From Eledone cirrhosa (taxonomy: Eukaryota), in assembly GCA_964016885.1 (NCBI GenBank), contig CAXHJY010000554.1, positions 23,742 to 87,741 on the forward strand: a DNA stretch of 64,000 bases, given 5' to 3'. Below the pieces are notes generated by a model. That model did no database searches and was not told where the DNA came from. It saw only the letters and a program-made list of their open reading frames with translations. The position numbers were made by a program, and so were the translations under genes. Positions 3,682 to 64,000 of the stretch are shown here, piece after piece (the first letter of the stretch is position 1; every line of letters begins with the position of its first letter).

Positions 3682-4086
3682 ATGGAGCACAAACCATACA
3701 ATGGGGTATGGATCCCTGTAACAGATGGTCACGATAAAGTAATGTATGAAGGATATATTTTCAATTATGAAAAAATGAGTAAAACTGATGAAGACACTCG
3801 CTTTTACTCGTGTTACAGAAAGAAATCGTTGCGTTGTAAAGCAAGATTGCACATTTGTAACAACACAATAACAAAATTACATAAGAACCACAACCACACT
3901 GAGGATTCTTCGAACATTGATAAAAGTAATAAGTTCAGACTGGAAAGCGAGATGATACGAGCAACGGAATCACATTCGACAAGATTGTTACTTATCGCTA
4001 ACAGCCTCAATTCAACAATATCTGTCCCAGAAAAACTGGCAATCACAAATTCTCCTGGATGTATAAGACAAAGAAATATGAGCAAA
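3682..4086 (+). CDS. FLYWCH-type zinc-finger coding exon (variable unit V1), ends in phase-0 donor
   Basis: ATG at 3682. Translation VMYEGYIF..TRFYSCYRKKSLRCKARLH..HKNHNH fits the FLYWCH/WRKY-GCM1 C-x7-C..H-x-H pattern. There are 135 codons, then AAA|GTAAGT at 4086/4087. Confidence 0.8.
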
Positions 4087-4937
4087 GTAAGTGTATATTC
4101 ACGTGTGTATGTGAAAGCCTGTTTGTTTACATGTATTCAGTGAAGAATGAATCTAGTCAACTGAATAACACAATTTAAACCTGGCGGCCCATAATTCACC
4201 AATCACACTTTTTCTTGGCACCGATTTTAGCTGTCATAAAGTCTCTTTCGAAAGTTTTTTTTTTTTTTTTTTTTTAAATATATTATGAAGGAGTGAAACT
4301 TGATATTATTGCAGATGTATCTCAATATTGTTTCTAGTAGTTACTGTTACTTTTGTTAAGTACCGATTGACGGCTCTCGCCTAAAATACGCATCTCACTC
4401 TTTGCTGTCTGCTAAAATCGGGGACGGTGAAGGATACGAAAGTTACTTTCAAAACCCTGATTCAGGTATGGGTAACCCTTTTTTAGCAGTGAGTTGCATT
4501 AGATATGGTTCATCATAAGGTGAGCCGCACTACTAACAAAAATTAAGGGTAATTATTAATAAGGCGTGCCATTCAGAAAACCAAACGGGCCGCAGTTTGC
4601 CCATGGTTGCAAATAGTGTATAGTTTTATTGTTTATTTTACATAAAAGATATTCCATATCAAGAAGTGGAAAGTTATGGGACTGCCACTACGCTGACTAC
4701 TACGTTCATACGACTGGATAGAGGCTATTTCTAAAAGTGTTTCCAGAAATCTCATTTAGATCCAGAATCCTTCACGATAGACTCGTATACAATTAGTCCA
4801 AGCAACGTCAAAAATACGTTGATACATATCTTAGTGCTACCTATTACAAATAAATTAAACAGTTTGTGAATTTTCTGTTGGGATAGCCACATAAAACCAG
4901 CAAAGTCAGGTAGCAGTGCATTTAAGTTCTTTTACTG

Positions 4938-5492
4938 TCAAGGGTGCGTATTGTCACCTCTCCTGTTCATAATCTTCATGAACAGTATTGACATGCACAG
5001 CTGACTGGAAGTGGTATCAAAACTGGTGGGTGTAGGATCAAACTCGCTAATTTCAATTTGGTGTTTGAGCTTATCCTCACCTATGGTCATGAATCTTGGG
5101 TAATGACTGAACGATTACAAGCAGCCAAATGGGGTTCCTCCAAAGGGTCTTTGGAGTAATATTACTTGACAGGTTGCATAGCTTGGAGATCAAGGAGTCA
5201 CTCCAGGTAGAGCTGCTATTTCTCTGAGTCGAGAGATCACAGTTCTAATACTATGAACATGTGGTTAGAATGTCTCAGGAAAGAATTGCTGGGAAGATTT
5301 TACAGGCAAAGCCAACTGGTAGGACACTCAGTGATAGACCATGAGCAAGATATTTGGATAACATCCATGAGCTTGGTTGGTCTCACTTGGGGATCCATCT
5401 GGATCAATTGGAGATAGTTGCTTCTGATAGGACATGCTGGAAGGCATGTCTGAGGATTCTGCCCCCACAAGACTTTTAGGAATAAGTGAACA
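4938..5492 (+). mobile_element. RTE LINE 3' fragment, same family as 1940-2760
   Basis: QGCVLSPLLFIIFMN motif; shared 3' end ..aggaataagtg. Confidence 0.8.
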
Positions 5493-7029
5493 AAAAAGAA
5501 TTGTTATATCCTAACTAGAACTTAGAAAAGCAGTTAATATCTTAACAAATAAAAGGGATTTTGACACAGTGTAGTAAACTTACTAAAAGGGGTGTTGGGG
5601 TAAACAAAGAATTGGACAAGCCAATGTGGAATATTTAACTATCTTCCTCAAGAAGGATGCATGAAATGAAGGGGTTTTAGATACATTGTGCCCAAATAAA
5701 AGTGGTAATGTTTACAGTTAGAACATTTTTGATCATAGGTTTGCTCAACCAAAGACAGACTTAAGAAAATTGTGGACAGAGGATGTATAATTATAAAATC
5801 TAGAAAGTTATTTCTATTTTTTAAAATTCAGAGCTTTTAATTGGCACCATATCATCTAGGTGCATAAGGTTGACAGAATAAGAATGTATTTGAGTTTGTT
5901 TGTCTCTCTCTGATATTATTAATAATGATTTAAGAATTAGGCACAAGGTCAACAATTTTTGGGGAGAGGAAAGTCAATTAAATCAACCTCAGTGCATTAC
6001 TGGTACTTTATCTTATCAATCCCATAAGGATGAAAGCCAAAGCTAACCTAAGTGGGATTTGAACTCAAAGCATATTGTCAGATGCTCTATCAATACTGTC
6101 AATCCACTGTCCTAATAATAATAATAATAATAATAATAATATTTATATGGTGCCATAAATCTATTACAATTTTAAAAGTTTCTTCACAATTCACGAGTTT
6201 CCATTGCTCCTGACAACCTCTTCTTGCTGTGATTGATGAATGTTCAAGCAGGTCTTTCTCTACTGCATCTCCTGTGAGTTGGTTCTCACAATAGTAACTT
6301 GTGTATAACTTCCTGCTTACTTCTCCAGCAATTTCTTGCAAATTGTAACTGTCTTTGAGCAATTGTAGTTGTTATCTTGGGCAGATTTCCATATAAATTT
6401 TCATTTGTAATAAGCATTAAATAAATAAATCATCTGTAAGGAGTGTATACAATATTTACTTGCCTCCACAAATCAGGAACTACACCCATTATTATTTCCA
6501 TCTACATATATACTATAAGAATACAATTATACTAATGTGTACTATTCACACTAGTATATATGAATGTACATATATATCATCATCATCATTATACATCCTC
6601 TTTTCCATGCTTGCTTTCATTGGGCAGATTCTCTCCAGCATAACCGCCCTCGTACTTTTGTCATTTTTGTGAGGCTCAGTATCTTAAGATCAGCTTTAAC
6701 CACCTCTGCCCAAGTCTTTCTAAGTCTTCCTCAATTGCAACTTCCTTCCACTGGCATCACCTGGCACTTCGTCACCCAGTGTTCCTCATCTATATGTCCA
6801 AACCAGTGCTTCTCTCTTGCACACTATCTGATTCTTCTTATACCCAGCTTTTCTCTCAGTTCATCCATTCCTCATCATTCATGCACACTACTAACATTGC
6901 ACATCCAATGAAGCATGTCACTTCATTTCTCTCCAGTCTCTGTATATCCTATGCATTTATTGCTCATAAAGGAGAGAGGGAAGGACGACAGCTGTATAGA
7001 CTTTTAATGTAATCTTGATACTGATGCCT

Positions 7030-10492: not shown

Positions 10493-11644
10493 ATCATCAG
10501 GTAAACATATTTTTGTTATATGGTTTCATGACGTCAGTTCAAGTTATGTGAAAGTCACGAGAAGGCAAAATACGCCATAATGATTTTATAACAAGCAATT
10601 AAAACCAAATTGTTGATTCTGAAAGTTGTACGGCGTAAGTTAAGGGAGATAAATAAATTGTTGCTAAGGAATTATTAGCACCTGGTAACAATCATCAGGT
10701 GGCAGCATGTGTTACCAAAACAAAAACGAAAAAATCTCAGACTGTTAGTTAAAGGGTGAATGTAATTAAGGGCACTGTAATAATGTAATAAATGAAGGTA
10801 ATTTGTTTATCAATAAAAACAAAGTAGATTATTTATATTTTTACATAGTATACTATAAAGTAGTTTCTGTTACATTTAATTTCATCTCATGGCTAAATTT
10901 CCGTAAGATTTTGATACGTGGAAGACTGCCATATTTTGACAAGCGTTGACACGCGATTGTGGGTTTGTTAGAGGAAAAAAATAAGTGGCCAGAGGAAATA
11001 GAGAAAGGACAAGTGGTGTTGTGTGTTACAGATCGGATTATTATTGTGCGCCGTTATGTGAGAGGTTTGGGGTTGATTTCAAGCAAAAGGGATTTCCTGC
11101 GATGTTTTTTCTTTTCTCTTTTTTTATTTGCAATTACTTCCTCACAAACAAGCTATACGTTTCACGCACACATCTCACGTTTTTGTGTATAATACTCCAT
11201 TTACACTTGCGTGTGCGCGCGCCCACACACATACATACAAACACACACACATACACACATATATACGCATTTCTTGGCCCCGCTTTCCTTCATATATAAC
11301 CATATAACACCTGTACATTCTCTCTGTCACCAATACAATTCTCACCAGACGCCTACTCACAAGACTTAACCATTGTATCTTACTCCCGCTCTCATTTACT
11401 CACATACGTCAATGTTAAATCTGGGCGGTATCGTTAGGAAATATAGAAAAGAAATTGTTTTATGAGAATTAAATTATATTTTATATTTTATGAAGAATAA
11501 ATAGCTAATAAGGCGAACACTGAATAATTAATGAGACGGACTGGAGTTTTGCCCTCTTTTCTGTTTGTGTAGGTGGCTTCCACAGTATTTCTGAAGAGAA
11601 GTAGTTTTGGATCTATCGTAGAGATAAACAGATCGATCGAAACA

Positions 11645-12055
11645 ATGCCCCAACATTGCGTAGTTCGATTTTGTGATACCGTTCAGTCTTCGAGTTCAGA
11701 ACCAGCCACTAGTTTACACCGCTTTCCAAAGGATCCCGTTCTAAGGTCCAAATGGATCAATTTCGTGCAGACAGGGCGTAAAAACTGGACACCCAATGGC
11801 TCATCTGCCATATGTTCGCTTCATTTCACCAGCGAAGACTCACTAGGAGTTTTAATGAAGAAATTCGGATGCCGTACACGCATATTCTTGAAACAAGGAG
11901 CGATACCAACAATACAGTGCCCTAAAATGGCATTGTGTGCAGAGAAACCCACAGAGCAAAGACAGGATTTAGTCAGTGATAAAGCGATAAATGAAAATAT
12001 AGCCCTGTCCGGCGGAAATCCATCAGTTCCAAAATTATCTAAAGGAAACTCTCTG
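11645..12055 (+). CDS. THAP zinc-finger coding exon (V2, exon a), phase-0 donor
   Basis: MPQHCVVRFC..SLHRFPKD..WINFV..ICSLHF..LKQGAIPTI gives the C2CH THAP signature with conserved P, W, F and an AVPTI-like box. Donor CTG|GTAAGT at 12055/12056. An upstream acceptor ctcttttctgtttgtgtag| lies at 11572 and is in frame. Confidence 0.88.
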
Positions 12056-18047: not shown

Positions 18048-18087
18048 CTGAAAACTCAGAATCAACTAAATGAAGAATTTGATATTG
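18048..18087 (+). CDS. 40-nt mini-exon (LKTQNQLNEEFDI-G), phase 0 in / phase 1 out; probable second exon of V2
   Basis: Strong acceptor ttttttttttccttgtag| and consensus donor TTG|GTAAGT. Open in frame 0 for 13 codons + 1 nt. Too short for the ORF track. Confidence 0.7.
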
Positions 18088-21826: not shown

Positions 21827-22067
21827 ATGCCGGCTAACTGTATAGTGAAAGGCTGTCGCTCCATTCAGAAGAAAGGCGGGCCGATTAGCTTCTACCGACT
21901 ACCATGGAAAAATGTCCGTTTAAGAAACGAGTGGATACGACGAGCTGGTTATGATCCGAATAACTACGAGGAAGTGAAGCATATAAGTCGTGACCATCGA
22001 GTATGCAGCAGGCATTTCTGGAACAACCGCAAGGAAAGTCCTTATGATCTCCCGACGTTTTATCTGG
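21827..22067 (+). CDS. THAP zinc-finger coding exon (V3), phase-1 donor
   Basis: gccacaATG context. MPANCIVKGC..SFYRLPW..EWIRRAG..VCSRHF..LPTF. Donor CTGG|GTAAAA at 22067/22068, followed by low-complexity T-rich intron-like sequence. Confidence 0.88.
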
Positions 22068-23403: not shown

Positions 23404-23647
23404 ATGGGTCGTGCGCGAAAATCGTTCAGTGCTAAACAGAAGTTAAAAGTGATAGCTTTTGCCGAGATTTATGGAAACCGAGCTGCTGGTCGTCAATTCA
23501 GTGTCGATGAGAAATCGGTCAGAGAATGGCGGAAGCAGAAAGATCGGCTGGAGAACATGCCGAAAATAAATGTAGCTGATAGTAACAAGCGACCAAAAGA
23601 ATGGCTGTGGGCTATGCAGAAATGCGGTTTATACATACCGAAATACG
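23404..23647 (+). CDS. Brinker-DBD/pogo-type helix-turn-helix coding exon (V4), probable phase-1 donor
   Basis: MGRARKSFSAKQKLKVIAFAEIYGNRAAGRQFSVDEKSVREWRKQ resembles the BrkDBD-type HTH at the N-terminus of POGK-like pogo transposases. The donor ACG|GTACTT is weak, so the 3' end is uncertain. Confidence 0.75.
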
Positions 23648-31571: not shown

Positions 31572-31812
31572 ATGCCAACCAAGTGCATTGTGAAAGGCTG
31601 TCGTTCCCTTCAGAAGAAAGGTGGGCCGATTAGCTTCTACCGACTACCATGGAAAAATATACATTTAAGAAATGAGTGGATACGACGAGCTGGATATGAC
31701 CCAAATAATTATGAAGAAGTGAAGCATATAAGTCGTGACCATCGGGTGTGCAGCAGGCATTTCTGGAACAACCGCAAGGAAAGTCCTTATGATCTCCCAA
31801 CGATTTACCTGG
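31572..31812 (+). CDS. THAP zinc-finger coding exon (V5), paralogue of V3, phase-1 donor
   Basis: 74/80 residues identical to V3 by manual alignment. Donor CTGG|GTAAAG at the same position (31812/31813). Confidence 0.88.
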
Positions 31813-32001
31813 GTAAAGAAACTATCTATGAAACCTGCTTCATTTTTAAAAATTAATTTATGAGTATAATTTGTAGTCCATCTCGTTTCCTCCTTTTTGC
31901 TCTTTAAACAGCTATCCAATGCGTGCTTTTTCTTTCTCTCATTCAGCACACATACTAATGTGATACCGTCGCCGTCTTAACGTTACTTAATATTTCGAAC
32001 C

Positions 32002-32052
32002 TTCTACCTCATTTTCATTGGTCGGATTAAAACTTGAGCTAGCATGACGTCA
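32002..32052. promoter_or_regulatory. Second copy of the inverted CCAAT + CRE block
   Basis: ttctacctcattttcattggtcgg..catgacgtca. Confidence 0.5.
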
Positions 32053-34331: not shown

Positions 34332-34563
34332 ATGGGTTTTAAACGAATGAAATATACTTCAAAATTTAAACTACAAGTCGTGATGCTGGCTTTGAAAACC
34401 AATAATTCGGAAGCTGGGAGACAATTTAGTGTTAATGAAAAACTTGTTCGGGACTGGAGGAAAAAGGAAGCTGAACTTCGGAATATGCCACCCACAAAAT
34501 GTTCTAATCGCGGTAAGAAAAATACTGACAAAATCAATATACCATGTGTTAATTTTTTTACAG
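34332..34563 (+). CDS. Brinker-DBD/pogo-type HTH coding exon (V6), phase-1 donor
   Basis: MGFKRMKYTSKFKLQVV..NNSEAGRQFSVNEKLVRDWRKK. Two candidate donors, both phase 1: GCG|GTAAGA at 34512 and CAG|GTGAGT at 34563. Confidence 0.8.
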
Positions 34564-36152
34564 GTGAGTTTGACATTTCGAATTAATAATAATGATAATT
34601 TCTTACATTGCTGAAGAAATTGTATAAAGAAATGACTAATTAGTCAGCAATGTTGATGGTTATTAATTAGTCTAGGTTTTTAATTATGGATTTTTGGAGG
34701 AATTTTGCAACAACTGTTGTTGATATAAAATCATGTTTGATGAAAACAATATATTCTTAGGCGGTTGTGAAATTATAACAAATGATGATGACGACGTAAT
34801 TGTAGCCACATATGAGAATATAATTTACTACTTATTTGCTTTACTTTCATTTAAAAATGTATTTGTAATTAATGAAAATCCCCTGCAACCTCACATTGTC
34901 TTGTGTATAAAGGTCGTCACAGTTGCGTAACTATTCTAAATGTAATATCGAATAAGTGGCCAGAATTGTTTTAAGTCTCCTAGCTGGGGTTTTGTAGTTT
35001 TCAGAAATTTCCGCCCTCTATATAAACAAAATTGAATTATTTCAACACTTCAAATACAAACGAAATATATAGTTGATTACAGTATAATGTTAATGATATC
35101 AACTAAAATTCGTTGGCTCAGTGACCATGAAATAATACAGTATTTTCTGCTTGTTTTGGTATTTTTATGTTGGTGATATTCTAGAGAAACAAATGCTACG
35201 TTTTTAATATTTATACCTCCTAATTTAAGTGTAGTTTTGTTTTTAATTTTATTCTTTTCTGTTTCGCTATTTTTTGCCTTGTAAATTTCTTCGGTTATTG
35301 GATCGTTCATATTGATTGATCTGTTTGATGCTTATCAGAATTATACAGCCTTGTTCTCTCTACACGTGGTTGTTATAAGTGAGGTGTATATTTATGGTTA
35401 ATAAAAAAATTAATTTTTGTTGAAATAGAAAAAATACAGGAATCAATAAAAGATCGAATGGACGTGTAGTTTGTTTGAGAGAATTCAGCAAATAATAGAT
35501 TTTTGCGCTCAATTAAACACACATTAATTTGGTGTTGATTGATAAAATTTGCTTTTTAAATATTTCTATGTCATAACGTGAAAAATATTCGATTAGGTTC
35601 AGAAATCCCTAAGTTTTACCTCTACACGACTGCCATGCAATAGAATGTTGATTACCGATTTTAAAAAAATTTAAAAAATTCGCGCAAAATGTTTTTTGCG
35701 GCAATTTGTTAAGAAGCAGTTTAGCGGAAATATTAAAGTTTTCAAATCGGAGCAATCCTATTGAAATGTTTACACGCTTGTTCATTGACAGTTTCCGATT
35801 TCTGTAGTTAAAACACAATAATATAAAACAATCTGGAGTAATTCATTAATCGATTACACTTCCGTTTTTGTATTTCCACTCGGAGTTTGTGTTTTCTTTT
35901 AAAAGAAAGCAAGCAAGCCAATCTGAATTGAATAACTGGAATAATTTGAAGACTAGTGTCAAAGGAACAGAAGATGAACCCTATATGATGGATTGGAAAA
36001 AAAAGCCGTATAGTAAGAAGGATCTACAGAGAAGTAAAGCAAGCACTAAAGCAAGCAAGCAAGCAACCTACCGACCAACGGAGTGTGCGGCCGACATGCT
36101 TGGATGTGTATGTGGGCAGCCATATTGCTTTGAATGAAAACACTGTAGAAAG

Positions 36153-36223
36153 ATGGTGAACTTCTGTGCCGTGTTTGGCTGTAACAGTAAACACAAGACT
36201 GGGAGCGGCATTTCCTTCCACAG
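36153..36223 (+). CDS. THAP domain first exon (V7a): MVNFCAVFGCNSKHKTGSGISFH-R, phase-2 donor
   Basis: aagATGg start, C-x4-C THAP N-half, 71 coding nt, donor CAG|GTAAGA. Not in the ORF track. Confidence 0.88.
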
Positions 36224-39200
36224 GTAAGATTATTTTATCTTTTGTTGTTGCTACTTTAAATTTGTTTTTTCATTTTTACTATTTCCATTAATGTTTGTTT
36301 AAATATATATTTATTTCTGTATGACAATTCCAGCGAAGTCTCTAAGCCAGTACATAAGGATTAGCTAGTTTAAGTTAGTGTAGGAGCGGCGACTAATACC
36401 TTTCCAATACTATCACTGTTATTTTTCTTCCTCTCACTTTCATGTCTCTCTTATCTCGCTCTCTCACTCGATGTATTTGCATCTCTGTTTGCGCCAATCT
36501 TCTCCCCCCCCCCCCCTTCTCTCACTCTCTCACACTATCGCACTCGTTCCACGTTTTTAGAGGTTTTCACATGGGTTTTATCGATTCACTCACCGGGGTT
36601 TGCTTTTTTTTTTTTACATTATTTTCGCTATAATATAGCACTCCTGTTGATCTATTCAATATAAATTGTCTTGTTGCAATATATCGCATTTGTAAGTCCA
36701 TTTCGTCTATTAGTATTCCTTTGTCTTCGATCAAGATGAGAAGTGACTGTTTAGGAAAAAACTAGAGAAATGAAGAGGAGAGAGAGCCATAGGGGGATAA
36801 TTGATGATTGCAATTTTAGCGACAGAACTACTTGTCTTTAACTTTTAATTGTATTCTTAGATTGGCCGGCACATGTTCTGTGTTTACAACGTGTGATAGA
36901 GGGTGTGTGTACTACAGTAAATAGTCCAGTCGAAAGAGCCCTTCAATTTTTCGTTTTCCTGTATATGATTATTTCTTGTTGAATTTCTGATTTCTAAACA
37001 TGATCAAATGATAAAGATATGTCTTTTCTTCACCTACCCCCACCTCATGTATTGTGACTAATGTGCACTATATTGTATGTGTATCTCTTTAAGGACGACT
37101 TTCTTGTTTTTGTCAGACATAAATCGTAAGTGCTAGTAATGTTTTGAGTTCATTGATTAAAATGTCTTCTTATTTGAGGATATTTCTTGCCAGCAATGGA
37201 TACACGGATGGTTTTCTGAACGTGTTACCAGCGAATACTTATCCTGGTACTTGGTTCTCAATAACTCAGTCCACTGAATTGTGGTTTAACTACACATAAG
37301 TCAGCCTAAGTGAACAGTTCTGTAATCTCTTGAGCATTGCGTAACTATGACTTCCTCGTTTTTTGAAAGTTGTAGGGTGTAATTGGAAGATTTGGCTGCT
37401 ATTTCTGGCAGGTCAAGAAGCCATGTACAGGCTCCTCATACTTCTTAGCTTTCAGTAGATACCAGCAGTAGTATTGTTCACAATTATAGACAATGATACT
37501 CTCTCTAGAATTAATGAATGATTCATTGGATTGTCATGTAATCTACATAATTCTTTCTCGGAGGGAAAAACTACCAGTATCATCATGGTTATGACTTAAT
37601 TCTGCAGAAACTGGAGATAAGCCCATGGATATTTATTATTTAGAAAAGGATATGTAATGCTAGAGCATAAGTGAGCTGAAAGAAAAGTTAAGTATAAGAG
37701 GAATTGAATGTAGTATGTAAAAGAAACTATTGTGTTAGTATAGGGTCATGTTATGTGTAAGGAGAGTGAAAGTTGTACTATGGAATAGGGAGACCTAAGA
37801 AGCGAAGGGATGAAGATATAAAGAATGACCTCAAGAAGCTGAGCCTCGCGAAGGAGATGACACAAGACTAAGCTGACTGGTAATATGCTATAAAACAAAA
37901 GACCCACTCTCCCACACAAGCACAATGGCACAATATAAATTAGTGGGCAACCAGAGGCTATAGTATTAATGATTGAATTGAGACAATAAAAGGTTTGCAA
38001 GGACCCTTCAGTCTTGATGAGCATATAATAACCACTCTATTGCTGATGCCTTGATAAAATGCACCCACAACACTCTGCAAAATGTTAGTGTTGGTGCCAC
38101 AAGAAAATGTTAGAGGTGGTGCCATGAAAATACATGCTCAGTACACTCTGTAAGGTAGTTGTTGTTGTTAGGAAGAGCATCCATCCATACAAGCCATACC
38201 AAATATGGAATGTGTGGACAAGTTGGGTAGATCTGATAACCCATTCAACTGAAGCCATTGAGGAAAGCAGATAAAATGATGCTGATGATGACGACAACAA
38301 TGAAAATGGATTAAAATATGTGCTAGTCACTGACAGAGCAACACAAATTCTTGCTTAAAATTAAAGTATTTTATAGTAGTTAAATTAGAAAGTTGGTGAT
38401 ATTGGCCTATGACAAGTTTAAATATACTGTATACATTTTGTTGTGTACATTTTAGTTTGCATGACTGTTTATTATCAGTACCTTATCATCGGTCTGATAT
38501 TTGAGATACACTGTAATTTTTCAAGAAAATGTTTATCTTAATAAAATATAACCAGTTCTTAAATATTCTGTGTATCAGCATTGTTTACATTCAGTTTTAC
38601 AAGTTGGCATACCTGGAGGGACATTTGCATATGTAATTGCTGTGACAAATGTTTTATTCCTTTGTGCTAACCATTAAACCATAAAGACTTGTTATCAACC
38701 AGAGAAAATGTTGTGGGTGGTAACACATGCCAATAGCTAAATATATTAACTTACCAAAAGACTGGTCTGTTCTAGACAAGTAGACTACTCATACTTAACA
38801 AAATAGTTAAATTAGTTTCCTCTTGTAGTTGAAATTATGTACTAAATAGTTGCAAACTTCTTACAATGAAGCTACCTTACATTAACCAAGTTCTTTTTAT
38901 ATGTAATTACAAAGGTGATGGCATGTAGTGACATGGTAAAAACATAAAGGGGACCAATCACAGGGTGTTGGCATTGTCTCAAATATATTTGTGTTGAATG
39001 GATACATTGAAAATGTAGTGTGAGAGGATTATTAAACTGGTTATAGCTTTAGTTAAGCTATTTGCAAAATAACAACAAATGGTGATTTGTTGAACTTTGG
39101 TTTATTGCATGACAAACGTTTTCAAATGTAAGAAGGAGCAACCTACCCCTAAAGTCCAAGTCTTGTTACCTGACTCACTAGGAGTGTCTTCACTGTCGAC

Positions 39201-39279
39201 TAGTTCAATAACAAGTCTGCAGTAAAGGCCTTTCCATCAACAGTTTGTCTTTTACTAGCTTGTGGCAATTCTTTACATG

Positions 39280-39870
39280 ACAAATATATTTAAGTGTAAA
39301 ATGTGCATAAGGGAAGCTGCAAATGGAGAGGGTTTTCAGCTGGATCTTGAGAATGTTGGAAAAATGGAATGTGTGGTAAGGTTTTGTTATCTAAGAGACA
39401 TGTTGAATGGTGGTAGTACAGTAAGGTGTGCATGGAAGAAGTTCTGGGAACTAAGTGGCATGCTAACAAAAGAGTGTAGCTGAAAATGAAGGGGAAAGTG
39501 TATGCTGTCATAGATGTGAGACATGGGTGATGAACGTGGAACAACAGAGGAGGCTGGAAAGGATAGAAATGATAATTGTTTAGTGGATGAGCAGAATATC
39601 ACTCTAACAGGAAAACTACTATGAATTGCAAAGGACGATAGTAATAGAGCCAGGGGCGAATGTCGTTAAGAGAAATGCAATGGCATGGTTGGGTCGTGTG
39701 TTGAAGGATGAAAGAGACCAAATGACAGGAATGGTGAAAATCCATATGGAAGGAAGTAGAGGCAGAAGAATACCAAGAAAAACATGGTTTAAAATAAAGG
39801 AGATGTGGAGAATTGGGCAAAATAGAGAAGCTTGTCATGAGGCCTAGCTAACTACTGTTTTTTGGCTAAG
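39280..39870 (+). mobile_element. Old RTE LINE 3' fragment
   Basis: VVRFCYLRDML..AWKKFWELSGML; WLGRVL..GSRGRRIPRKTW. Confidence 0.75.
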
Positions 39871-41735
39871 AAAATGGCTTGAAAACACTTGTATACTTGT
39901 AATACTGCATCTTGCCTGAATAAAAACAGTATAGGGTATTGTGTATTGCCATACTGTACCAAACAACTAGATTGAATCCTGGCATATTTTGTATGCTTGG
40001 CTTAAAAGATCATTCAGATTTGTTTGATTAACACTATAGGTTAAATAGCTTAACTGAGGCAATACAAAAACAAGCAACATTTGAAATCGTGTTTCCATCA
40101 GTGATACATATCAAGACATACATCATAAAATCCATATTTGTTATATGAATTACTGACATATGTTCATGGTGAAATTAGTTACATTGTTTCACTCTTATCT
40201 TTAGCCAATCTCTTTAGCAACCCTATCTTTTCATACCTGATGGCGTCATGTTCTATTTGATTTACAAGTGTCTTAAGTTTCAATGTCCATAGCTTATAAA
40301 TGCTTTACTTTCTCTTATTTACCATCTGTAATCTTTTCACATTTCTTGAGCGTATCAAAATTCTCTTCACATCAATTCTTTGAAGAAACAAAAATATTTC
40401 TATATTTGTTCTATAACATTTATTACTATATACACTATAATAAAGCTAAAGTAAAATCATTTGAAAAGGAAAGTTAACAATGCTGCAATATAGTATTTAA
40501 AGACATCATTTCTACCATACATTTCAGTCTTTTTTTCTTTTAGAAACCTTTGTTTCATGATACACGGAAGTTCTGTAAATTCTCATTTTTTTTCTTTAAA
40601 ACCAATTAGCTCAGTCTAAGTACTAGAATACCACAATATATTTATTATCATTTCTTATGATGTCTGTAGATTCAACGCCAGCTTTGGTATCAATGTACTG
40701 AAAATTCAGTCAGATTTGTATTCTTTGAGGGTATGTTTGATAGTCTTTTTATGAGGTCAACCCATAATTGAGAAAATTGAAATATGTTTACTCCTGACTG
40801 TATTTCTAATGATATACTATCTATTTCATATAGTTAATGATGAATTTTAAAGGATTTACTAAAATTATTAATGATTTCATAACTAAGATGGTAATTTAAT
40901 GTAAGGTTTTTATATAAAATTATGTTGAAAGATTTTGATTTAAATTGGAAATTTTTTAAATGGGTGGTTATTTCATAAAACCAGAGATGATTTTGGTCAA
41001 GTTGGTAACAAAAGGGTTAAATATTCTGAAGTTTATATCTTGAAGCTTTAACATTTGTTAAAAATCAGGAATTCTGTTTCTTTTTTTATGTGTTCAAGAG
41101 AAGGGAGATAGTAATGGTGAAGGATATATAAAATATTCAATAGATTTGTGTCAAAAGATGTATGGCTTATGAGAAAATGTCAAAATTTTACCCCCAAATT
41201 TAGATTTGATGACTGTTGCTTGACAGATGTGCATATGCTGAATATCTTGTTTTTATGATATTAAAAAGCTATTGAGTTTCTGGCATAATGTCATTCATAA
41301 TAATGGGATGTCATCTGGTATGAGAGTAACTGGATTTTACTGCATTTATTTATACTAATCAACATTGCTCTTTCTATCATTGTTGATGTGAACATATGTT
41401 ATTTACTCTCTGTTGCATTCAGTCTTTTCATACCATACATTACTCTTCAAGCTTAAAGTCTTTTTGTGCACTCCTTTTGTGGATTCTGTTTGCAATGGAA
41501 GGTAAGCAATCAAGTGTCCCCAGTCATTCCATCTTCAATTCAGATAAGGTGAATTTTACCCCTAATACAAATAAATAGAAGATAAAGCCACATTGCTGTA
41601 TAATGAATCTTTACACCAAACCCTGTTGCTCCCATCAAACGTTACTTTAATAAAACATTTGTTTTCTGTTGTTTTTTTCATTATCTGTTCAATAGTTTCA
41701 ATAATATCTTTTTTCTTTCCTTTCTTTTCTTTTAG

Positions 41736-42007
41736 ATTCCCTGATGTACGTAAAAAGCCAGGTCTGTGGCACAAATGGGTCCGTGCTCTTGCCCGTCAGA
41801 ACTGGACTCCTACTCATTACACTTATATCTGCAGTCAACATTTTGAAAAATCTTGCTTCCAAACGATCAAACCAGGGGGGCGGGCATTACTTGAAAGATA
41901 TGCTGTTCCTACAATATTTAATAATGTACCCAAAGCACCCGAAAGTCGTGATTTTAACATTGAAAGTTCAATGATATCTACATCTATGTCTTATGTGCGA
42001 AACTCTT
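41736..42007 (+). CDS. THAP domain second exon (V7b), phase-2 acceptor, phase-1 donor
   Basis: Long polypyrimidine tract ending tttag|A TTC CCT completes R-FPD..KWVRAL..WTP..ICSQHFEKSCF..AVPTIF. Donor CTT|GTGAGT at 42007/42008. Confidence 0.9.
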
Positions 42008-42259
42008 GTGAGTGCCTAATTTTTTCTTTAATTTTCATAAATATGTATATTGTTTCAAGTAGCTTTTAAGCATTTCTTGTGATTCATGTTCAGACATGAA
42101 TTTCTGTTTGCATATTACGCATTATTAACCTGTGAAGAAACATGGATTTTTCACAGTTAGTGATTTATTATAATAATCCTCAATATATATATCGGGAATA
42201 TGTCTGTATATATATATATATATCATTGTTTTTGTGTCTATTGTTCCATGTTTGCATGG

Positions 42260-43420
42260 GTTGTTCAGGTCCTTCTCAGCACAGCATCTCTTCACTCCTG
42301 TTACTTTGTCGTTTCCTCTGTGAGTCTCAGCAATTTCATGTCAGCTCTCACAATCTTTGCTTAGGTCTTTCTTGGTCTACTTCTATTGTGGCTGCCTTCC
42401 ACTGGGAAGTATATATATATATGTCATCATCATCATCATCATCATTGCCACTATTTAATGTCCCTTTTTCCAAGCCAGCATGGGTTAGATGAGCTGTCCC
42501 ATTGTGAGACTTGGCAGGTCAGATAACCATGTCTTGCGCATACAGATTTGATTTGGGCTTGGTATCTATGACAGGATGCCCTTCCTAATACCAACCATAT
42601 TTACAGTGTGTACTGGGTGCTTTTTGCCATGATACCTACACAACCACATTATAGTGTGGACTGGGGAATTGTGTGGGGGGGGTAGATCTAGGGGCATGGG
42701 GCAGAGTGTTACAATGTGGGAGGTGTATGGAGAGGAAGGTAGTGCATACTAGATGTGTACCTCAGACCATGAACATGGGAAAGCAGGTCTTGCTTCATAA
42801 CACCAGAGATCATGGTCCTCTGTCATTACCTTTGAGAGGTGCAATTGTGCAAGGTCAGCTTTTATCACTTCATCCCAAGTCTTCTTAGGCCTTCGTACTC
42901 CATATCTTCCATCAACTTTGAGCGCTCTGCACCTTTTTATACAGTATCATCCTTCATACGTATCAGGTGTCCATACCAATGCAATATCCTTTCCTGCACA
43001 CTGCATCTGATCCCTCTTATGCCCTGTTTCTCTCTCATACAATCTATCCTTCACTTTGAAGGAAAGTAGTAGCTCCCTAAACTTTCTCCAACCCATTCTC
43101 ACTCCGGCTACTGTGCTTTCAGAACATCCCCCTCTGCTGCCAATTTAGTCATCCAGGTAACAAACTATATACTACCTCTACACAGCCCTCTGGGCATTTG
43201 AAAGAGCTAGTATCCTGTGAGCTCTTGTTACTTACTGCACCTGTGCATCAGCCACATGTAAAACCTACGTTGTTTGCTAGCCTGCCTGAGATCCCATTAC
43301 ATCTCTTGTGTATCCATAGTTTGCATTAGTGACATAGGCTGGAATTTCTACTAACTCCTTTTCTACATGCTGAGCAAGGCCATTTCCCTGAGGGTATCTG
43401 GGCTCTGTTTTCCTTTCCAC
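42260..43420 (-). mobile_element. RTE LINE 3' fragments and RTE-tailed non-autonomous repeat
   Basis: Homologous to 27060-27800 and 45040-45860; (cat)n tail. Confidence 0.75.
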
Positions 43421-45039
43421 ATATTACTCTTCTTGAGCCCAATTCTCTGAGACACCTCAGGGATTTGGTATGTTTTTACTAAGAACCAGGATACCTACAT
43501 AGCAGCTTCCTATATTCTAAGCATTGCAAGTAAAATTTGATTGAGAGAATCTGTAGAAGCCTGGTGACAACACACTACCATGGTCGTCTCTGAGTAAAAA
43601 ACAAAAACACACTTTTTTTCTACTCCGTCTTTTTCTTTGCTTTTTTCCTTAAAGCCTCTTGGAATGTGTTTACCACCATTCTTCTGGTAAACAACTATTA
43701 TGCAATATACACCTGATGATGACACCGGGTTCATACGCAGCCTGGCCACTAAAATGCGAAAAGTGTTTGCTGAAATAAATAATTAAGGGAATTCAACCTG
43801 TCTGGCCTCTTGTCATTTTACTTTATAATATATATATATATATATCTTTATATATATGTATACACATACACACACACATACACCCTCCTGACATTCATCC
43901 AACTATTCACTGCACTTTACTGTCTGTATAATAACAGATGGATTTGACCCTGTCTGTATTTTATCTTTCCGTACTACGAACCTTATCACTCTACTTCTAT
44001 CTCTCTTCATGTCTCTGTATCCAATATAATGCTACCAGCTATCACTCCCTCTTCGCCAGGTCACGTGTTTGCCATCTGTTACTCTTGATTACCATCCGTC
44101 TCTTTCTTTCTCACCAGTAAAAATGTTGCTACCGTCACTGTCTCTATTCCATTACCGCTACCACTGCACGTTATCCAACCAGATTCTTCTTTCCTTCAAT
44201 CACTCATCCTGGTCTTTTTATTACTTGCCAATAGCATGACAACTTCTCTAGTTTTAGTGTCATGATGAAATATGCCCAGTGCACTGTTAAGTGATTGCTT
44301 TTGGAAAACCATGCCAAAAATGGAATGTACATATGAAATATATTTATCCTGATCAAGAGGGTTGTAACTTTCTATAAGTTCTGTCTTGGACTGAGGTGAT
44401 TTGTTTAATCCAATCCATCTTAGGAAAATACAACTTAGATAATAGCTAATCGCCATGCAGCAGCTTCTGGTAAATGCATTATTTTGATTCCTTATTTTAG
44501 ATACATAATTGGTGTAAAATGATGATGATGATGATTTCCCTGCTAGCCACGATTTGACTATGGAAAACAAATGTACTTGATGTCTTTTAGCCCTCCTCCA
44601 TTTTCGCATATTATTGTGCTATTCTATCTCATCAATAATCATAATCTATTTAGATTTTGTATTTCTTAAATGCTCTTTTTTTTTTATTCATCCGTAATTG
44701 ATTGGTGAGGGGGTGGTCTCTAATCTTTTATATATATATATATAAAATAATAGTAATATACAAGGGAACAAAGAATCAGTGTTGAGTCATATACATATTT
44801 AATTGCATATTACATATGTTTCACTGTCGATCAGCTCGAGGAACAATCGATTAATGATCGATCCTGACTCTGGAATCGGAAGCTCCTCAGATATGTGTTA
44901 ACATCTAGATTCTCGTCTATATATATAGTGTACAAATCAATCCGTCGGTTTTGACAATAGGTATTTATTTGTTTGAGATACAAACTATCTCCCCATTTAA
45001 TTACTGTATAAGTGGCTGAGTCTTCCACCAAGACATGGA

Positions 45040-45858
45040 ATCATCATCATCACCGTTTTACGTCCGTTCTTCCACACTAGCATGGGTTAGACGGGTTGTC
45101 CTGTTGTGGGCAGTGTCTGGTCGGCTGACCATGCCTTGCTCATACAGGAACTGATTTGGCTTGATTTCTACAGCTGGATGCCCTTCCTAACACCAACCTC
45201 ATTTACAGTGAGTGCTGGGTGCTTTTTCGTGGCGCCTACACGTCCACTTTACAGTGTGGGCTGGGTGCATTTTTGCCGTGGCACCTCCACGACCACCTTA
45301 CGGTGGGGGGTGTGGGGGCATATTGTCTATATGCTTCAGCTTGTACCCATGGGAGGTCGGGTACTCTGTATTACTGCGTGACGCCAGAAGTCACGGTCGT
45401 GTGTCATTGCCTTTGAGAGGTGTAATTGGGTAAGGTCGGCTTTTATCACCTCATCCCAGGTCATCTTGGGTCTCCCCACTCCGCGGTTTCCATCAACTTC
45501 TAGTGCTCTGCACCTTTTTATGCAGCTGTCATCCTTCATACGCATCACATGTCCATACCAGCGCAACTGCCTCTCCTGCACACAGCATTTGATTCCTCTT
45601 ATGCTCAGTCTCTCTCTCAATTCATTTATGCTTTGTCGTTCACGTATATTACTGTTACACATCCATTGGAGCATGCAGGCTTCGTTTCTCTCTAATCTAC
45701 GTAAGTCTTCCACCTTCAGCGCCCAGGTCTCACTACCATGTAACATTGCTGTTCGGATACACGCATCATACAGTCTGCCTTTCATTCTGAGGGAGAAGCC
45801 TTTTGCAGCTAGCAGTGGTAGTAGTTCCCTAAACTTCTTCCATCCCGTTCTTACCCTA
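45040..45858 (-). mobile_element. RTE LINE 3' end with UTR and (GAT)n tail
   Basis: MKGRLYDACIRTAMLHGSETW..RQLRWYGHVMRM..RGVGRPKMTW. Confidence 0.9.
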
Positions 45859-47419
45859 GTTACTTAACTTAAATAGGTTGTTCAACATGACTGTGTGTAT
45901 AACCTGGCTGGACCTTTGAATTACACCAACAAATCCATCTGATGGGCCTCCAAGCTGTTTTTGTCTATCCAAGCCTATGATGAAAGACATTTGCTCATTA
46001 CGCCACTCGTTATTGTGAGTCATGGAAATCAGAATAATTGCAGAAATAAGAGATTTAAAAATGTAAAAAAATGTATCTCTCTTCACTGATGATCAACTTA
46101 ACTTCAAAAGATGTGGGATTCAGCAAGAATGTTGATAATCCTCTGCACAGATCTCCTTTACCTTGTATAAGGTAATCTTCTGAATATATAAAACAGTGTC
46201 CAACACTTGCTATGTTAAATAATAAGGATGAATATATAGATACAGTGTATCCCAAAAAAATGATTACCTGTGTAGGCAATATTTATTAGAACAGTGTATA
46301 CATTTTGGGGGGGGGGGGGGGGGGTACACCCTGCATCAAAGCTGTAGACGCTTGGCCAAAAACTGAAAAGTATATAAGCAAGATGTGCCCCCAAACCCCT
46401 ATCTGGGAAGGTAGTAATTCCAATAAATTGTTAACTTGTCTGTGATGAATTATCGAACCCATGCCAGCATGAAATAAGGAAGGTGATGATCATCATCACC
46501 ATTTCATATTTACTTTCCATGCCGGCAAGTGTTATCAGGTGACTGCGTCACGCTCATACATTTAATTATGGCATGTACTTAATACGCTTTATCATGGCAC
46601 CACCACTACCACTTTACAGAATGAACTGGGTTCATTTTATTGTGGCACCAGCACTACCACTTATTAACACCAGGGTTTTCACAGCATCATCTTCAGCCAG
46701 CCTAGGAAATCAGTGATGAAAGCATGGATATATAAATACAGACACACTCACGCAAATTTTCTTTTGTCTTTTTTTTTCTTTCCTCTTCCACTATGAATAT
46801 ACATTGTATGTGTGTGTGTGTGTATAAAACTAAGGTTCTAGTAAGTAGAAAGGAAACCAGAAGCCTGATTCCCTCTGAGCAATAGCCTTACTCAGTGTGC
46901 AGGAAAGGTGTAGATAGAAATTCTATCCTATGCCCCAAATGCAAATGAAGGGTACACAAGAGATGTAATGGGATCTCAGGCAGGCTAGCTAAGAATGTAG
47001 GCTTTGTATGTGGTCAATGCACAGGTGCAATAAGTAGCTGTCGCTCACAAGAAACAAGCCTCTTTAAATGCCCAGAAGACTCCATAGAAATAGTCGATTG
47101 CTTCTGTTATCTAGAGGACCAAATTAGCAGTGGAGGTGGGTGTTCTGAAAGTATAGGAGCCAGAGTGTTGGTAACTATGGAAAAGGAAGAAATAGGAAAA
47201 CTTGGGATCATGTGATGAAAGCTATCTTTGCCCAGTTAAACCTCACAAAGAAGATGATACAGGATTGAGGCCATCATGCTACACTCCAGAAGACAGTATG
47301 ATATATATACATGTGTTTGTGTGTGTGTATGTATATATATACATATACCTTGATAGCTTTTGGCCAGTATTGGCCCAAGCCATGTCTTACTTCATAGCAC
47401 CACTGGTGAAGTCTTTCAA

Positions 47420-48070
47420 ATCATGATTTGGACACCATGGCCCACTCAAGTAGAGAGTTATTATTCATGGAGACATATCCAGGATTTCTTGGAAGAATTT
47501 GTCCAGAGTTTTTAAATTTTGTGTAATGTAAAGACAGCGGGACCAGCTGAGGTGAAATAATTGTACTGTAATGTTGTTGGCAGATAGCATGAGGCCTGAG
47601 CCTTAGGTGTACTTTAAAGATGATGCCAACATCATTTGGGCAAAGCTGATGGAATATTTTCCACATCACAGTAGTATTGGAGAGAGTGAAGTTTGAGCTT
47701 TTCTAGTTGACCCCGATAGTGAAGGCTTGTCATGCTGTCTGTCTTTTTTGTGATTGACCTTCAAGGTGCTTCAATTTTCATAATACTTTGTTTTGTGCTG
47801 GGAGACCACGGTGTGCAACAGTATTCAAGGTGGGCTTGGAAAAATAGAGAAGAGAAGGATAGTGATGTGGATATCTCTCGACTGGGAAATTCTGAGAATC
47901 CTGGAACACATCCTATTGGCCATGTCAACTTTGCTATTTTTATGAGTGGCCCAGCTGATTTTGTTGGATGCCAGAGGCGTTTCACCTGACTAAAGGGAAT
48001 GAGGGTTTCAGTACATCCTCTTTTCCAAAGTGGATTAATTCAAATTTATCCTCATTCAGCATCATATTGT
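47420..48070 (-). mobile_element. CR1/L2-like LINE RT C-terminal fragment
   Basis: HLEYCCTPWSP motif in ORF 47761-47985(-). Confidence 0.65.
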
Positions 48071-48327
48071 TTTATATATATATATATATATATATATTCA
48101 TGCTGTTAGGTAGTTGGTGTTAGGATACATCATAAAAGCAAAGTTGGGCCACCTAACCTATATATATATATGGTGGTATTTGGAAGGACAGCAATTTAAA
48201 TATAACTTATTTGTTATGTGAGTATTGTTTTTTTATTTAACACCCTAAATTGTATTTGTTTCTATATTTAGTAAAGCCTGGTTAGTTTCTCAATTGACAT
48301 ATTTCTATATATCGTTTAAAATTATTT

Positions 48328-48365
<38 letters not shown>

Positions 48366-48702
48366 ATAGGTAATAAGAACAGAGAAAATATATTTTGCAT
48401 TTCATTTTCTTTCATCAATTTTTATTACTGTTTAGTACACTGAAAATTACTGTCTTTTATGCAAATGTGTGGCTTACGTCTTATTTATTAGTTATCTCCC
48501 TTCTCTTTAGCATTTTTTTTACTTTTAATTTTTAGGCTTATATCCTATATAGACCAATCAGAGACCTTTAAAATATCACATGGTTTGCTATGACAGACAA
48601 GATGGCCTTCTGTGTGGTATACATTTCTTTTTCTCATGATCTAAAAGAAAATTAAACTACCATTGCTCATTTCATCTGTACTGTGCAAATGCAGAAGAAT
48701 TG

Positions 48703-49057
48703 ATGATGGAGAAACATGTTGGTACACAATCCACTATTTATGATATTGTAACTCAATGTCAATGCCCACAGATTTCTTGTTCTTATAGAAATATTGAAGA
48801 TCATGTAAAGTATACATTATTTACTAACTTTCATAATTTGCCTAGTCAGAAGTTACAAAATTTATATTTGAGTAGTTTAATGAAGAAGAAAGCTTGTAAA
48901 TGGCAGTGCTTACATAAGAGAAAAGACCCCAATTTTTCACGTCGAACTTGTACCTGGGAATATTTTTTGAATATTGATGAAAAGAACATTAGAGTTTGTT
49001 CAAAGGCTTTCCGATTTGTCCATGGCATTAATGATAAACGGGTTAGAAAAGCTCAAG
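48703..49057 (+). CDS. Cys/His-rich transposase N-terminal-like domain exon (V8), phase-1 donor
   Basis: CQC-x4-C..FTNFHNL..QNLYLSSLM..WEYFL..RVCSKAFRFVHGINDKRV resembles the N-terminal zinc/HTH region of invertebrate Sola-like DNA transposases (family call from motif recall, not searched). Donor AAG|GTAAGA. An in-frame stop lies upstream at 48637. Confidence 0.7.
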
Positions 49058-49847
49058 GTAAGAATGAATATTTCTGCTATTTGAGTACATTTTATCATTT
49101 TTTTCAACTGGTTGGAAAGTATCTGATAAATGGATTATGAGAATTCTTATTATAATAATAGCCAATGTGTATTTGTCCGTCACTCACTAGAGATGACTGA
49201 GGAAAGTGGTGATGACAAACTACAGAAAGTATTGTCTTACACTTGCTACACTGCGTGTATAGCGAGGTGGCTCCACACATTGGTTGTTATGATTATGTGA
49301 GTGTATATGTGTTTTTGTGTGTTTATTTAGAAAGATACATAGACAATAGAATTACAAACACACACGCATCTACACATATCATCATCATCATCAAACAGAC
49401 ACACTTAGAAAAAATAATTATTACATACACACACATCTATTGATGACTGAGGAAGGAGGGGGGGGGGGCGAAACAATAGAAGTCCAGCATTCTAAGATTC
49501 GTCACACTTGTGTGTGTATTGGCCACACACATTGGCTGTGAGTGAACGCGAAGCAACCAACCAACAAATGCTGCTTTTTTTATATTATGTATATATATTA
49601 CATTTAGCCATCATTTTTGATGGCATGGAGCCAGCTAGCATTTATAGATTTCAGCATTGGACACAAATCTCATTAGTTTGTATTATATTCTCTGATACTA
49701 ATGCCATTGTGTTCATGAACAATCTTTATATATGTAAATGTAAGGTGTGAATGCGTGTGTTCGCATTTTATTAAGAAAATACGAAGTGAACACTCACAAA
49801 ATACTATTTGTCATCTCCCAAGTTTGTAAAACATTTATTTTGAAATA

Positions 49848-50032
49848 CAGTGAAATTCCGTTATAACGAAATTCAATGGGTATAAAATAAAATTCATTGT
49901 AACAAAAAATGCTTTGTAACGAGATCGACTGAAACAAATCGAGCGTTTGTTTGTTATTACCTCGGGGAATAAAAAAGATTTTGATATACTGAAACATTCT
50001 TTATAATGTTCGTTATAACGGAATTTTACCTG
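49848..50032. mobile_element. Tigger/pogo-type MITE with TA TSD
   Basis: TA-cagtgaaattccgttataacgaa..ttcgttataacggaattttacctg-TA. Confidence 0.8.
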
Positions 50033-52721: not shown

Positions 52722-53075
52722 GTTTACTTGTTCCTGAGAGGATTGTGGGAACAGATCCTGTAAGAAGCAGTCGTCTCCAATTGATCCGGCTGAATCAAAG
52801 CGAGACTAACCGAGCTCACGGATGTTATCCAACCATCTAGCTCGGGAACTACCACTGGGTCTCCTGCCAATTGGTTTTGCTTGTAAAATCTGTCCAGCGA
52901 TTCTTTCCCATGGCATTCTAACCACATGTCCGTGATATCTCAATTGAGAGAAATAGCATCTCTACCTGAAGCGACTCTGATTCAGAACTATGTACTTTAC
53001 CGAGTAACGATTTTGTCCGCTTGTATTTGCGATCGTTAATCATTACCGAAGACTCATGACCATAGATAAGAGTTT
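52722..53075 (-). mobile_element. RTE LINE 3' fragment
   Basis: Reverse complement of the family at 4938-5492 (IQPDQLET.AS). Confidence 0.7.
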
Positions 53076-53797
53076 GTACAAATAAAAGTCAGTAAAATAA
53101 AATATGATCGGCTAAACCCTTCAAAGTGGTGTCCCAGCTTTGGCCTTTGTTCAATAAATCAAACTAGTAAATGCATCTGTATCTCGTGATTTTGGAGTGG
53201 GTGTCCAGTGCACTATATAAAGTGAGAGTTTTTTTACTATAGTTTTCAATGAGCAAAATCTTTTATTGGTGTATTGGGTTTTTCCCCTCGTGTCAAATTG
53301 TTTAAACTTTTTCGATAGTGTAAATTACTGTACTAAATACACACACATATATAATGAAGCTCTACAAATTATAGTATTTGAGCTATTTCAGGTGTAATGT
53401 AACTGAAAATAATTTTATTTTAGGCTATTCTTATATATATATATATGTATATGATTCTTTAAGACGGGTGGTTATAAATCCTATATTGCACCATACAATT
53501 TTACACTTATACTTCCTCTTACTTCATCAGCCAAAAATATTTTTGAAATACTTTCAAATCCTTCGAGCAACGACAGATTCGTAAAACCTACTCATATAGT
53601 GCTGTAAATCATTCGGTAGTAACTCTAATTGGTCAAAAACAGTTCGATATATAACATTAAACGTGATACGCAGAGCGGCTTCTGATACTTGATAAAAAAG
53701 AAATTACTTCTAACATCAATAAATCGAAAGTTTGCTCCTCAAGACAAAAGTGGTTACACATGCTGTAGACGAAGGCACAAACAAATAATAAATTATA

Positions 53798-54023
53798 ATG
53801 AAAAATCGCGCGCGTATTTTGCAAGATTTCATTGGCAATGGCTCGTCACAACGCAAGCGAATTAGAAATACACTTTATAAAGATGTCGAACAAACCATAT
53901 ATAAATGGGTCCTCCAGCTTTGTCGTCAGGGACTACAGCCAAGTGCTATCAAAAATCAAGCGTAAAGCTATTGAAGTAGCACACAGCCTTGGCTATAATG
54001 GATTTTGCCTTCGTAATAATTGA
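53798..54023 (+). pseudogene. Frameshifted CENP-B/Tigger-type HTH (possible decayed or mis-assembled variable exon V9)
   Basis: One frame reads MKNRARILQDF..RKRIRNTLYKDVEQTIYKWVLQLCRQGLQPSAIK. After an extra A in the A5 run at 53951-53955, the next frame reads IKRKAIEVAHSLGYNGF. Together these give the HTH_Tnp_Tc5/CENP-B pattern. Confidence 0.65.

Positions 54024-57921: not shown

Positions 57922-64000
<6,079 letters not shown>

Follow-up and report, generated by a model that had tools for sequence, protein, structure and literature searches.

A probable single gene in the octopod Eledone cirrhosa with some thirty alternative DNA-binding first exons and one common BTB domain

Can one gene supply a common C-terminus with a whole series of structurally unrelated DNA-binding domains, each brought in by its own alternative first exon? 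The question is raised by a stretch of 64,000 nucleotides from the genome of Eledone cirrhosa, hereafter the window, which forms the final 64 kb of an unplaced 87.7-kb contig (CAXHJY010000554.1) of a 3.0-Gb assembly. A preliminary description of the window had reported eight intact coding units on the plus strand and had proposed that they are first exons of one gene, exchanged in front of constant exons that were not seen. Based on searches of the whole assembly, including the sequence called C4 here, and on comparison with annotated octopus proteins, we conclude with high confidence that the window covers the 5′ portion of a single large gene, orthologous to Octopus bimaculoides LOC106877732, with about 32 alternative 5′ exons and a common C-terminus that contains a BTB domain. 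The explanation developed below as a whole, namely architecture, promoter choice, BTB pairing and origin taken together, is held with somewhat less assurance, although we regard it as likely.

Family searches of the genome revealed further clusters of plus-strand THAP and Brinker units on C4, and at C4:234.68-234.88 Mb many units running from an ATG to a splice donor precede an exon that encodes a BTB and is closed by a stop codon. A profile made from eight C4 BTB domains retrieves octopus proteins that carry the same BTB together with differing extra domains, and the core of the BTB shows 100% identity with its O. bimaculoides counterpart. Isoform numbers of LOC106877732 reach X36, and the 24 RefSeq isoforms compared have 23 distinct sequences in their first 12 residues and a single one in their last 533. 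This 533-residue C-terminus contains the BTB, which follows the variable domain in every scanned isoform of the gene. The proposal of swapped N-terminal domains on a common C-terminus is thus borne out, and the constant exons turn out to encode a linker, the BTB domain and a long tail. In the isoform models one variable exon leads to the constant exons by way of at most three short shared exons; the same junctions recur in O. bimaculoides, O. vulgaris and Argonauta models, and shared exons 2 and 3 and the constant exons occur in order on C4 with fitting phases.

The window contig itself holds no constant exon, and the 23.7 kb upstream of the window contain frames of long interspersed nuclear element (LINE) type only. 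Both ends of the contig consist of (TA)n, and the array that closes it (57925-64000) matches the TA-rich right flank of a 200-N scaffold gap with TA-rich flanks at C4:234,660,713. Before this gap lies an exon of isoforms X4 and X7; after it come an intact CENP-B-type unit at C4:234,669,434 (85% identical to isoform X10) and then shared exon 2. From this exon order and the (TA)n flanks we infer that the contig fits the gap, in which case the gene would span about 300 kb. The array is roughly four times larger than the window reveals.

All eight units of the window are indeed free of stops and lie on the plus strand, and Pfam above its curated cut-off names seven of them as one FLYWCH, four THAP and two BrkDBD domains, in agreement with the earlier assignments; the label "Sola-like" given to the eighth could not be verified. 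Six of the eight match the start of an O. bimaculoides isoform (75-99% identity), and the isoforms change to shared sequence exactly at the donors seen in the window. The FLYWCH zinc finger exon (3682-4086; Pfam E 2e-12; 85% identical to the N-terminus of X9) and the first THAP exon (11645-12055; Pfam E 3e-17; 75% to X6) end in phase-0 donors at 4086 and 12055, and in O. bimaculoides X9 and X6 they splice into a 40-nucleotide shared, or collector, exon 1 (18048-18087). This exon is flanked by AG and GT sites, is entered in phase 0 and left in phase 1, and encodes the 14-residue peptide of isoforms X4, X5, X6, X7, X9, X35 and X36. Seven phase-1 donors had been listed for the window, and all are real phase-1 GT sites, but the one at 18087 closes this shared exon and not a private unit. 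The others (22067, 23647, 31812, 34512 or 34563, 42007 and 49057) end the remaining six units.

Among these, the THAP exon at 21827-22067 is 99% identical to isoform X20, whose junction falls at the same donor leading to shared exon 2, and its sister at 31572-31812 is 99% identical to X21. Between the two sisters the nonsynonymous and synonymous divergences (dN and dS) are 0.032 and 0.50; with dN/dS of 0.064 and a 99%-identical O. bimaculoides counterpart for each, their preservation goes beyond chance. A Brinker-type helix-turn-helix (HTH) exon (23404-23647; BrkDBD E 3e-7) is 83% identical to X19, again with the junction at the same donor. The fourth THAP unit has two exons, the first at 36001-36223 (ATG at 36153, phase-2 donor, 96% identical to residues 1-24 of X11) and the second at 41736-42007, from which a phase-1 donor leads to shared exon 2; once spliced, the unit is 82% identical to X11. 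The view that each unit begins with its own ATG therefore holds with a correction, the exon at 41.7 kb being a second exon whose ATG lies in 36153-36223. Another Brinker-type exon (34332-34563; BrkDBD E 4e-11) with two phase-1 donors found no orthologous isoform among 297 proteins compared (best 41-50%); from position, strand and phase it is probably a member of the array. Equally probable as a variable exon is the unit at 48703-49057, a Cys/His-rich domain with an open frame and a phase-1 donor, which is single-copy in the genome. It matches unnamed, arthropod-rich Atlas clusters at 0.95 and gave no match to Pfam, to an isoform among the same 297 proteins or to a known fold, the single-sequence model reaching a predicted local distance difference test (pLDDT) value of 58 and a best Z of 4.7. 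The stretch that had been taken as array up to 54023 closes differently: positions 53657-54022 on the plus strand hold a decayed duplicate, deleted and frameshifted, of the CENP-B-type exon whose intact copy lies on C4 (blastn 78%, 70 gap positions).

CpG observed/expected exceeds the 90th percentile of the window at five of the eight unit ATGs. Intactness had been contrasted with LINE frames riddled by stops, and this stands for 8 of the 11 LINE-matching segments of the window; because a LINE frame of 900 amino acids is open further upstream on the same contig, intactness alone is a weak contrast. We also observed at 10776-10823 a short stretch with a GT donor that resembles the tiny first exon of X35 (E 0.13) and has no ATG at the start-codon position; it is perhaps a first exon that is non-coding or has decayed and yields a BTB protein lacking any DNA-binding domain.

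Joining proceeds in tiers. The approximately 32 variable units comprise one upstream of the window, eight within it and then 1, 11 and 11, with 24 lying outside the window on C4; each encodes a domain of DNA-binding type that is whole or almost whole. Tier 1 (FLYWCH, the THAP unit at 11645 and units further upstream) enters shared exon 1 in phase 0. Tier 2 (the remaining six window units and the X10 unit) enters shared exon 2 at C4:234,675,742, which runs from phase 1 to 0. Tier 3 (11 units) leads to shared exon 3 at C4:234,758,190 (phase 0 to 0), and tier 4 (11 units) leads directly to the first constant exon at C4:234,781,861 (phase 0). The expected single phase-1 acceptor downstream of the window thus exists as shared exon 2, although joining is tiered rather than uniform. 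A degenerate-pattern search of the genome for shared exon 2 returned no match, and the exon was located by reading the C4 sequence. Donor phase equals that of the next shared acceptor in every tier (0, 1, 0, 0), and with a simple self-made scoring matrix the best donor is in phase 0 for 19 of 20 C4 units, the remaining one having its phase-0 donor in second place. When the 24 C4 units were scanned with Pfam at E up to 0.01, 20 received a name, several of them under the curated cut-off: THAP, CENP-B_N with HTH_Tnp_Tc5, HTH_psq, DUF3504 and zf-C17orf113. Three units of the locus are of the Crypton-derived DUF3504 type. All 63 open reading frames (ORFs) that match known N-terminal parts lie on the plus strand, against a background of 2199 plus and 2290 minus ORFs in four regions; the queries of this count were known N-termini, so unrelated domains could escape it.

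Splicing in E. cirrhosa itself was addressed by aligning sequencing runs X4 and X1, both from one study, to positions 30500-50000 of the window. Contig 12 of run X4 (525 nucleotides, depth 3.6) begins at 36001, joins 36001-36223 to 41736 and continues to 42011, followed by 26 unaligned letters. The intron after 42007 and shared exon 2 start with the same four letters, and four common plus 26 unaligned letters add up to the overlap of 30 letters that a convergence point of several exons should produce, although the identity of those letters was not seen. Contigs of run X1 read through the ends of the 36223 and 41736 exons unspliced. Most joints and loose ends listed in this alignment are repeats, hence the verdict applies to the 36223-41736 unit only; the cover of 48647-48957 by run X4 is weak and was not counted as evidence. 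A search across sequencing runs listed no RNA run as carrying the query, and when longer proteins were sought with one THAP unit, the single match among three candidates was genomic read-through.

How such an array could have begun is suggested by a THAP domain that is divided between exons. Four tier-3 exons break off immediately behind the third cysteine of the zinc site of THAP, and shared exon 3 opens with a histidine-phenylalanine that supplies the last zinc ligand. In a tier-4 THAP of the same subfamily the homologous peptide lies within one exon, so that shared exon 3 is best read as the tail of an intron-split THAP, and it now serves unrelated first exons as well. A damaged duplicate of a split-THAP exon (C4:234,729,394; L014:9394-9627) lies 290 bp before the intact copy, an instance of exon birth and death.

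The same arrangement is not confined to octopods. A wide profile search led to Haliotis rufescens LOC124116851, of which 12 isoforms were compared; they share 744, 703 or 638 C-terminal residues and start with THAP (seven), FLYWCH (two), C2H2 (two) or MADF (one) domains. Five are split THAP halves with a peptide homologous to shared exon 3, and over about 112 residues this combination is 46-48% identical to that of octopus. H. cracherodii has the same layout. The derivation of the variable domains from transposons, as first proposed, accordingly applies to many of them and not to all, since abalone isoforms use C2H2 fingers. Because abalone shares the layout down to the split THAP, the system is probably older than the gastropod-cephalopod split, and a common origin of the octopus and abalone arrays before that event is the most economical reading. 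This split is of Cambrian age. A cuttlefish-linked cluster contains THAP and FLYWCH versions with 698 residues in common, and a search for decapodiform isoforms of this gene yielded one cuttlefish model and one unnamed relative only. The BTB tree (30 of 31 rows, one without the anchor motif being omitted) is poorly resolved, with 8 of 25 inner branches starred, and was not used for dating. A related BTB in Argopecten irradians (P0120, named isoform X5) is N-terminal, with a CENP-B HTH at the C-terminus, and bivalves may have an array of opposite orientation.

Within the genome of E. cirrhosa at least 20 sequences match the BTB of this gene. Six tandem BTB genes at C4:285.92-286.09 Mb each follow THAP, CG-1-like, FLYWCH-like, Brinker, CENP-B or STPR-type exons and are smaller arrays of the same design. 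Swapped N-termini are likewise found among isoforms of octopus LOC115209617, LOC115209547, LOC115209549 and LOC106879774, and in one octopus paralogue a complete DDE_3 transposase sits between a THAP or CG-1 exon and the BTB. Upstream of a second BTB copy, a unit at C4:234,832,711 (L025:2711-3199) is related to the Tc1-like transposase of the DDE_3 cassette of LOC106872006/LOC115209547, possibly a later stage of the same transposase capture.

Among solved structures the BTB of the gene ranks closest to BCL6, ZBTB17, ZBTB18 and KLHL-type chains; the TTK-type CG6765 ranks lower (E 2e-6) in this comparison with solved chains. It aligns to BCL6 and ZBTB17 from profile position 7-8 and is a full BTB that includes the N-terminal helix and strand of the ZBTB-type dimer interface. 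A homodimer model scored 0.85 versus 0.01 for the best of three controls, with contacts agreeing in at least 94%, pLDDT of at least 88 and an interface at residues 2-20 and 85-94; the mark used for this score is reached by 21 of 30 solved pairs (animals 7/16) and 0 of 23 single chains. BTB dimers have already been solved, so the model shows likeness only.

Taken together, these data lead us to propose the following mechanism. Each first exon would be driven by its own promoter, and splicing of the cap-proximal donor in cis would let promoter choice set the DNA-binding domain; we think such cis promoter choice probable. Since the BTB is common to all isoforms, those co-expressed in one cell should pair through a ZBTB-type dimer and so unite two DNA specificities, and the pairs may act as a modular chromatin regulator, either a repressor or an insulator-like bridge. 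With modest preference we favor a dimeric, sequence-specific chromatin regulator with fixed host targets over one that tracks transposons. The origin may lie in an ancestral THAP-BTB gene with an intron inside the THAP, whose 5′ half was duplicated and upstream of which transposase 5′ ends that later landed in the right phase would have been captured.

Several observations weigh against this account. The isoforms of LOC106877732 are predicted models from another species; RefSeq models of this kind in general rest on RNA-seq. Splicing in E. cirrhosa is represented by one contig of depth 3.6 from run X4, whose type is unrecorded and which covers intronic pieces too. Transcripts from upstream must skip the strong internal exon 41736-42007, the inclusion of which would shift the frame, and first-exon logic leaves this skipping unexplained. 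At the Cys/His unit (0.09) and at 36153 (0.58), CpG observed/expected is low. The window contig is not contiguous with C4 and its placement is inferential. The units at 34332 and 48703 have no isoform, with 15 of the 32 main-cluster members being among those compared, and the units of X5 and X18, like the THAP exon of X4/X7, escaped the queries made against the assembly, which does not imply absence; the X4/X7 query gave no match and that for the X5 CENP-B unit gave decayed or distant copies only. The octopus and abalone BTBs are just 29% identical, and a scallop protein with an N-terminal BTB outscores the abalone BTB against the profile.

The rival that survives best concerns function: the captured domains might guide a BTB repressor to cognate transposon ends, as a surveillance trap in which the array would change along with the mobilome. 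Transposase-type domains make up most of the named variable ones, and births and deaths are visible as decayed copies (53.7 kb in the window and C4:234,729,394), as units missing between species and as the DDE_3 cassette of the paralogue. Nevertheless, several domains have hardly changed between species (97-100%) and the split-THAP set is common to abalone, both of which are more readily explained by fixed host targets than by an arms race; abalone has C2H2 and MADF domains besides, and we consider surveillance possible but unlikely. A second rival leaves the proteins unchanged and lets trans-splicing, as known from mod(mdg4) and lola, connect short independent transcripts of the variable exons to the shared exons. 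Long-range skipping of internal exons such as 41736-42007 would then no longer be required, collinear gene models cannot separate cis from trans, and same-strand isoforms of mod(mdg4) exist too, according to the accessible text of PMC4667647. However, mod(mdg4) has opposite-strand exons, and here all 63 matching ORFs lie on one strand, none on the other, and upstream of their shared exon; nor is there an excess of AATAAA within 600 nucleotides after the donors (three sites at eight donors, background 0.73 per 600 nucleotides). We therefore regard trans-splicing as improbable and retain promoter choice in cis. The BTB could also be a Cullin-3 adaptor with the variable N-termini as substrate-binding modules, given that solved KLHL-type BTBs, among them NS1A-binding protein and gigaxonin, are placed next to BCL6 and ZBTB17 in the structural ranking, yet a BACK or Kelch domain was found in none of the 44 proteins scanned and the variable domains are of DNA-binding types, which makes this very unlikely. 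A last possibility, that each unit is a small gene or relic in its own right and that the multi-isoform models are annotation chimeras, is hardly credible, even though the window contig lacks a constant exon and PMC10027918 counts such proteins as separate genes. Against it stand the identical junctions in the models of three octopods, the phase agreement by tier, the contig found spliced in E. cirrhosa, a matching design in two abalone species and split THAP halves that lack their last zinc ligand unless the shared exon is added.

With one gene and promoter choice as the preferred reading, the locus can be set beside known systems. In UGT1A, tandem alternative first exons are spliced to common 3′ exons. 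Clustered protocadherins have the same arrangement (PMC9068888, accessible part), and our locus resembles both in joining tandem 5′ variable exons in frame to constant 3′ exons. It differs in that their variable exons are paralogous copies of a single domain, whereas here unrelated folds (THAP, FLYWCH, BrkDBD, CENP-B_N/HTH_Tnp_Tc5, HTH_psq and DUF3504 in the window and C4) enter a transcription-factor scaffold via several shared exons. Cephalopod protocadherins do not use the first-exon mechanism, according to the same part of that source. Like mod(mdg4) and lola, the locus gives one BTB to isoforms with different DNA-binding domains. In those genes, however, the BTB is N-terminal and encoded by common 5′ exons with variable exons 3′ of them, while here the BTB is internal and the variable exons lie 5′ of it; theirs belong mostly to a single domain type, lie in part on the opposite strand and are joined by trans-splicing, as opposed to at least six named folds on one strand in tiers. 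Their BTB is of the TTK type, found in arthropods only (PMC11426971), and the BTB here may be of another type. In operation the locus resembles a mirror image of mod(mdg4), in construction it relies on first exons of the protocadherin kind, and it is a member of neither family.

Partial parallels exist elsewhere. In the KRAB-transposase fusions of tetrapods, transposase DNA-binding domains were captured by splicing onto a host effector; these are separate genes with an N-terminal effector and no isoform array. The BTB of KCTD1 is of the potassium-channel tetramerisation type. A long isoform of KCTD1 carries a Crypton-derived DUF3504 exon N-terminal to the BTB as an alternative form (PMC3212892, accessible part), which is one captured exon as against an array with three DUF3504 units. 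In Octopus, most THAP and CENP-B proteins carry a BTB (PMC10027918); that study, by Mukherjee and Moroz (2023), describes expanded genes with BTB as a transposon source, and its main text, where accessible, is without the word "isoform" and mentions no shared locus. For oyster, the accessible part of PMC12111275 reports clusters of BTB genes and not shared-exon arrays. The isoforms are present in public annotation as uncharacterised, and no account of the locus appeared in the openly accessible literature searched, with neither LOC number present in the papers that one of the searches listed, although subscription papers and supplements could hold one; the layout has apparently not yet been described.

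If correct, this is a second and apparently independent route to "one BTB, many DNA-binding domains", with a polarity opposite to mod(mdg4) and with protocadherin-style first exons. The split THAP with its shared exon would be a zinc finger assembled by exon choice. The locus would also be a standing genomic trap for transposase domains, in which early (whole cassette), mature and decayed stages can be seen side by side, making serial domestication directly testable. In counts of mollusc transcription factors, gene sets based on the longest isoform would retain 1 of about 30 DNA-binding domains, and 3′-end single-cell data would merge all isoforms, so this diversity is presumably invisible in current cephalopod cell atlases. 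More speculatively still, and at present doubtful, molluscs might possess a combinatorial transcription-factor locus more than 500 million years old, with cell-type-specific or stochastic choice among dozens of promoters, BTB-paired isoforms (528 dimers from 32 isoforms) that organise chromatin by bridging different DNA motifs, and ongoing recruitment of transposase domains, expanded in octopods to about 32 exons plus many paralogous mini-arrays and possibly serving neural cell-identity codes.

Some further features of the region may be recorded. A Mariner fragment (Mos1-type HTH_48) at 54604-54873 on the plus strand of the window ends in a stop with no donor seen, and is apparently a transposase 5′ end inside the array that has not been captured. 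Upstream of the window on the same contig, the open LINE frame of 900 codons (L005:4163-6862) is accompanied by several near-identical copies, which suggests recent LINE activity within the introns of the gene. Between shared exons 2 and 3, a plus-strand open frame of 319 codons at C4:234,681,747 (L010:1747-2703) ends in a stop and encodes repeated LERDLEKW-like units with no Pfam hit; it may represent a gene nested in the locus, or else an alternative last exon, which would yield isoforms without BTB. Just downstream of the BTB genes, on the minus strand, lies a single open frame of 1197 codons (C4:234,862,271; L028:2271-5861), which we take to resemble a TANGO6/TMCO7-type protein and which is a possible synteny marker.

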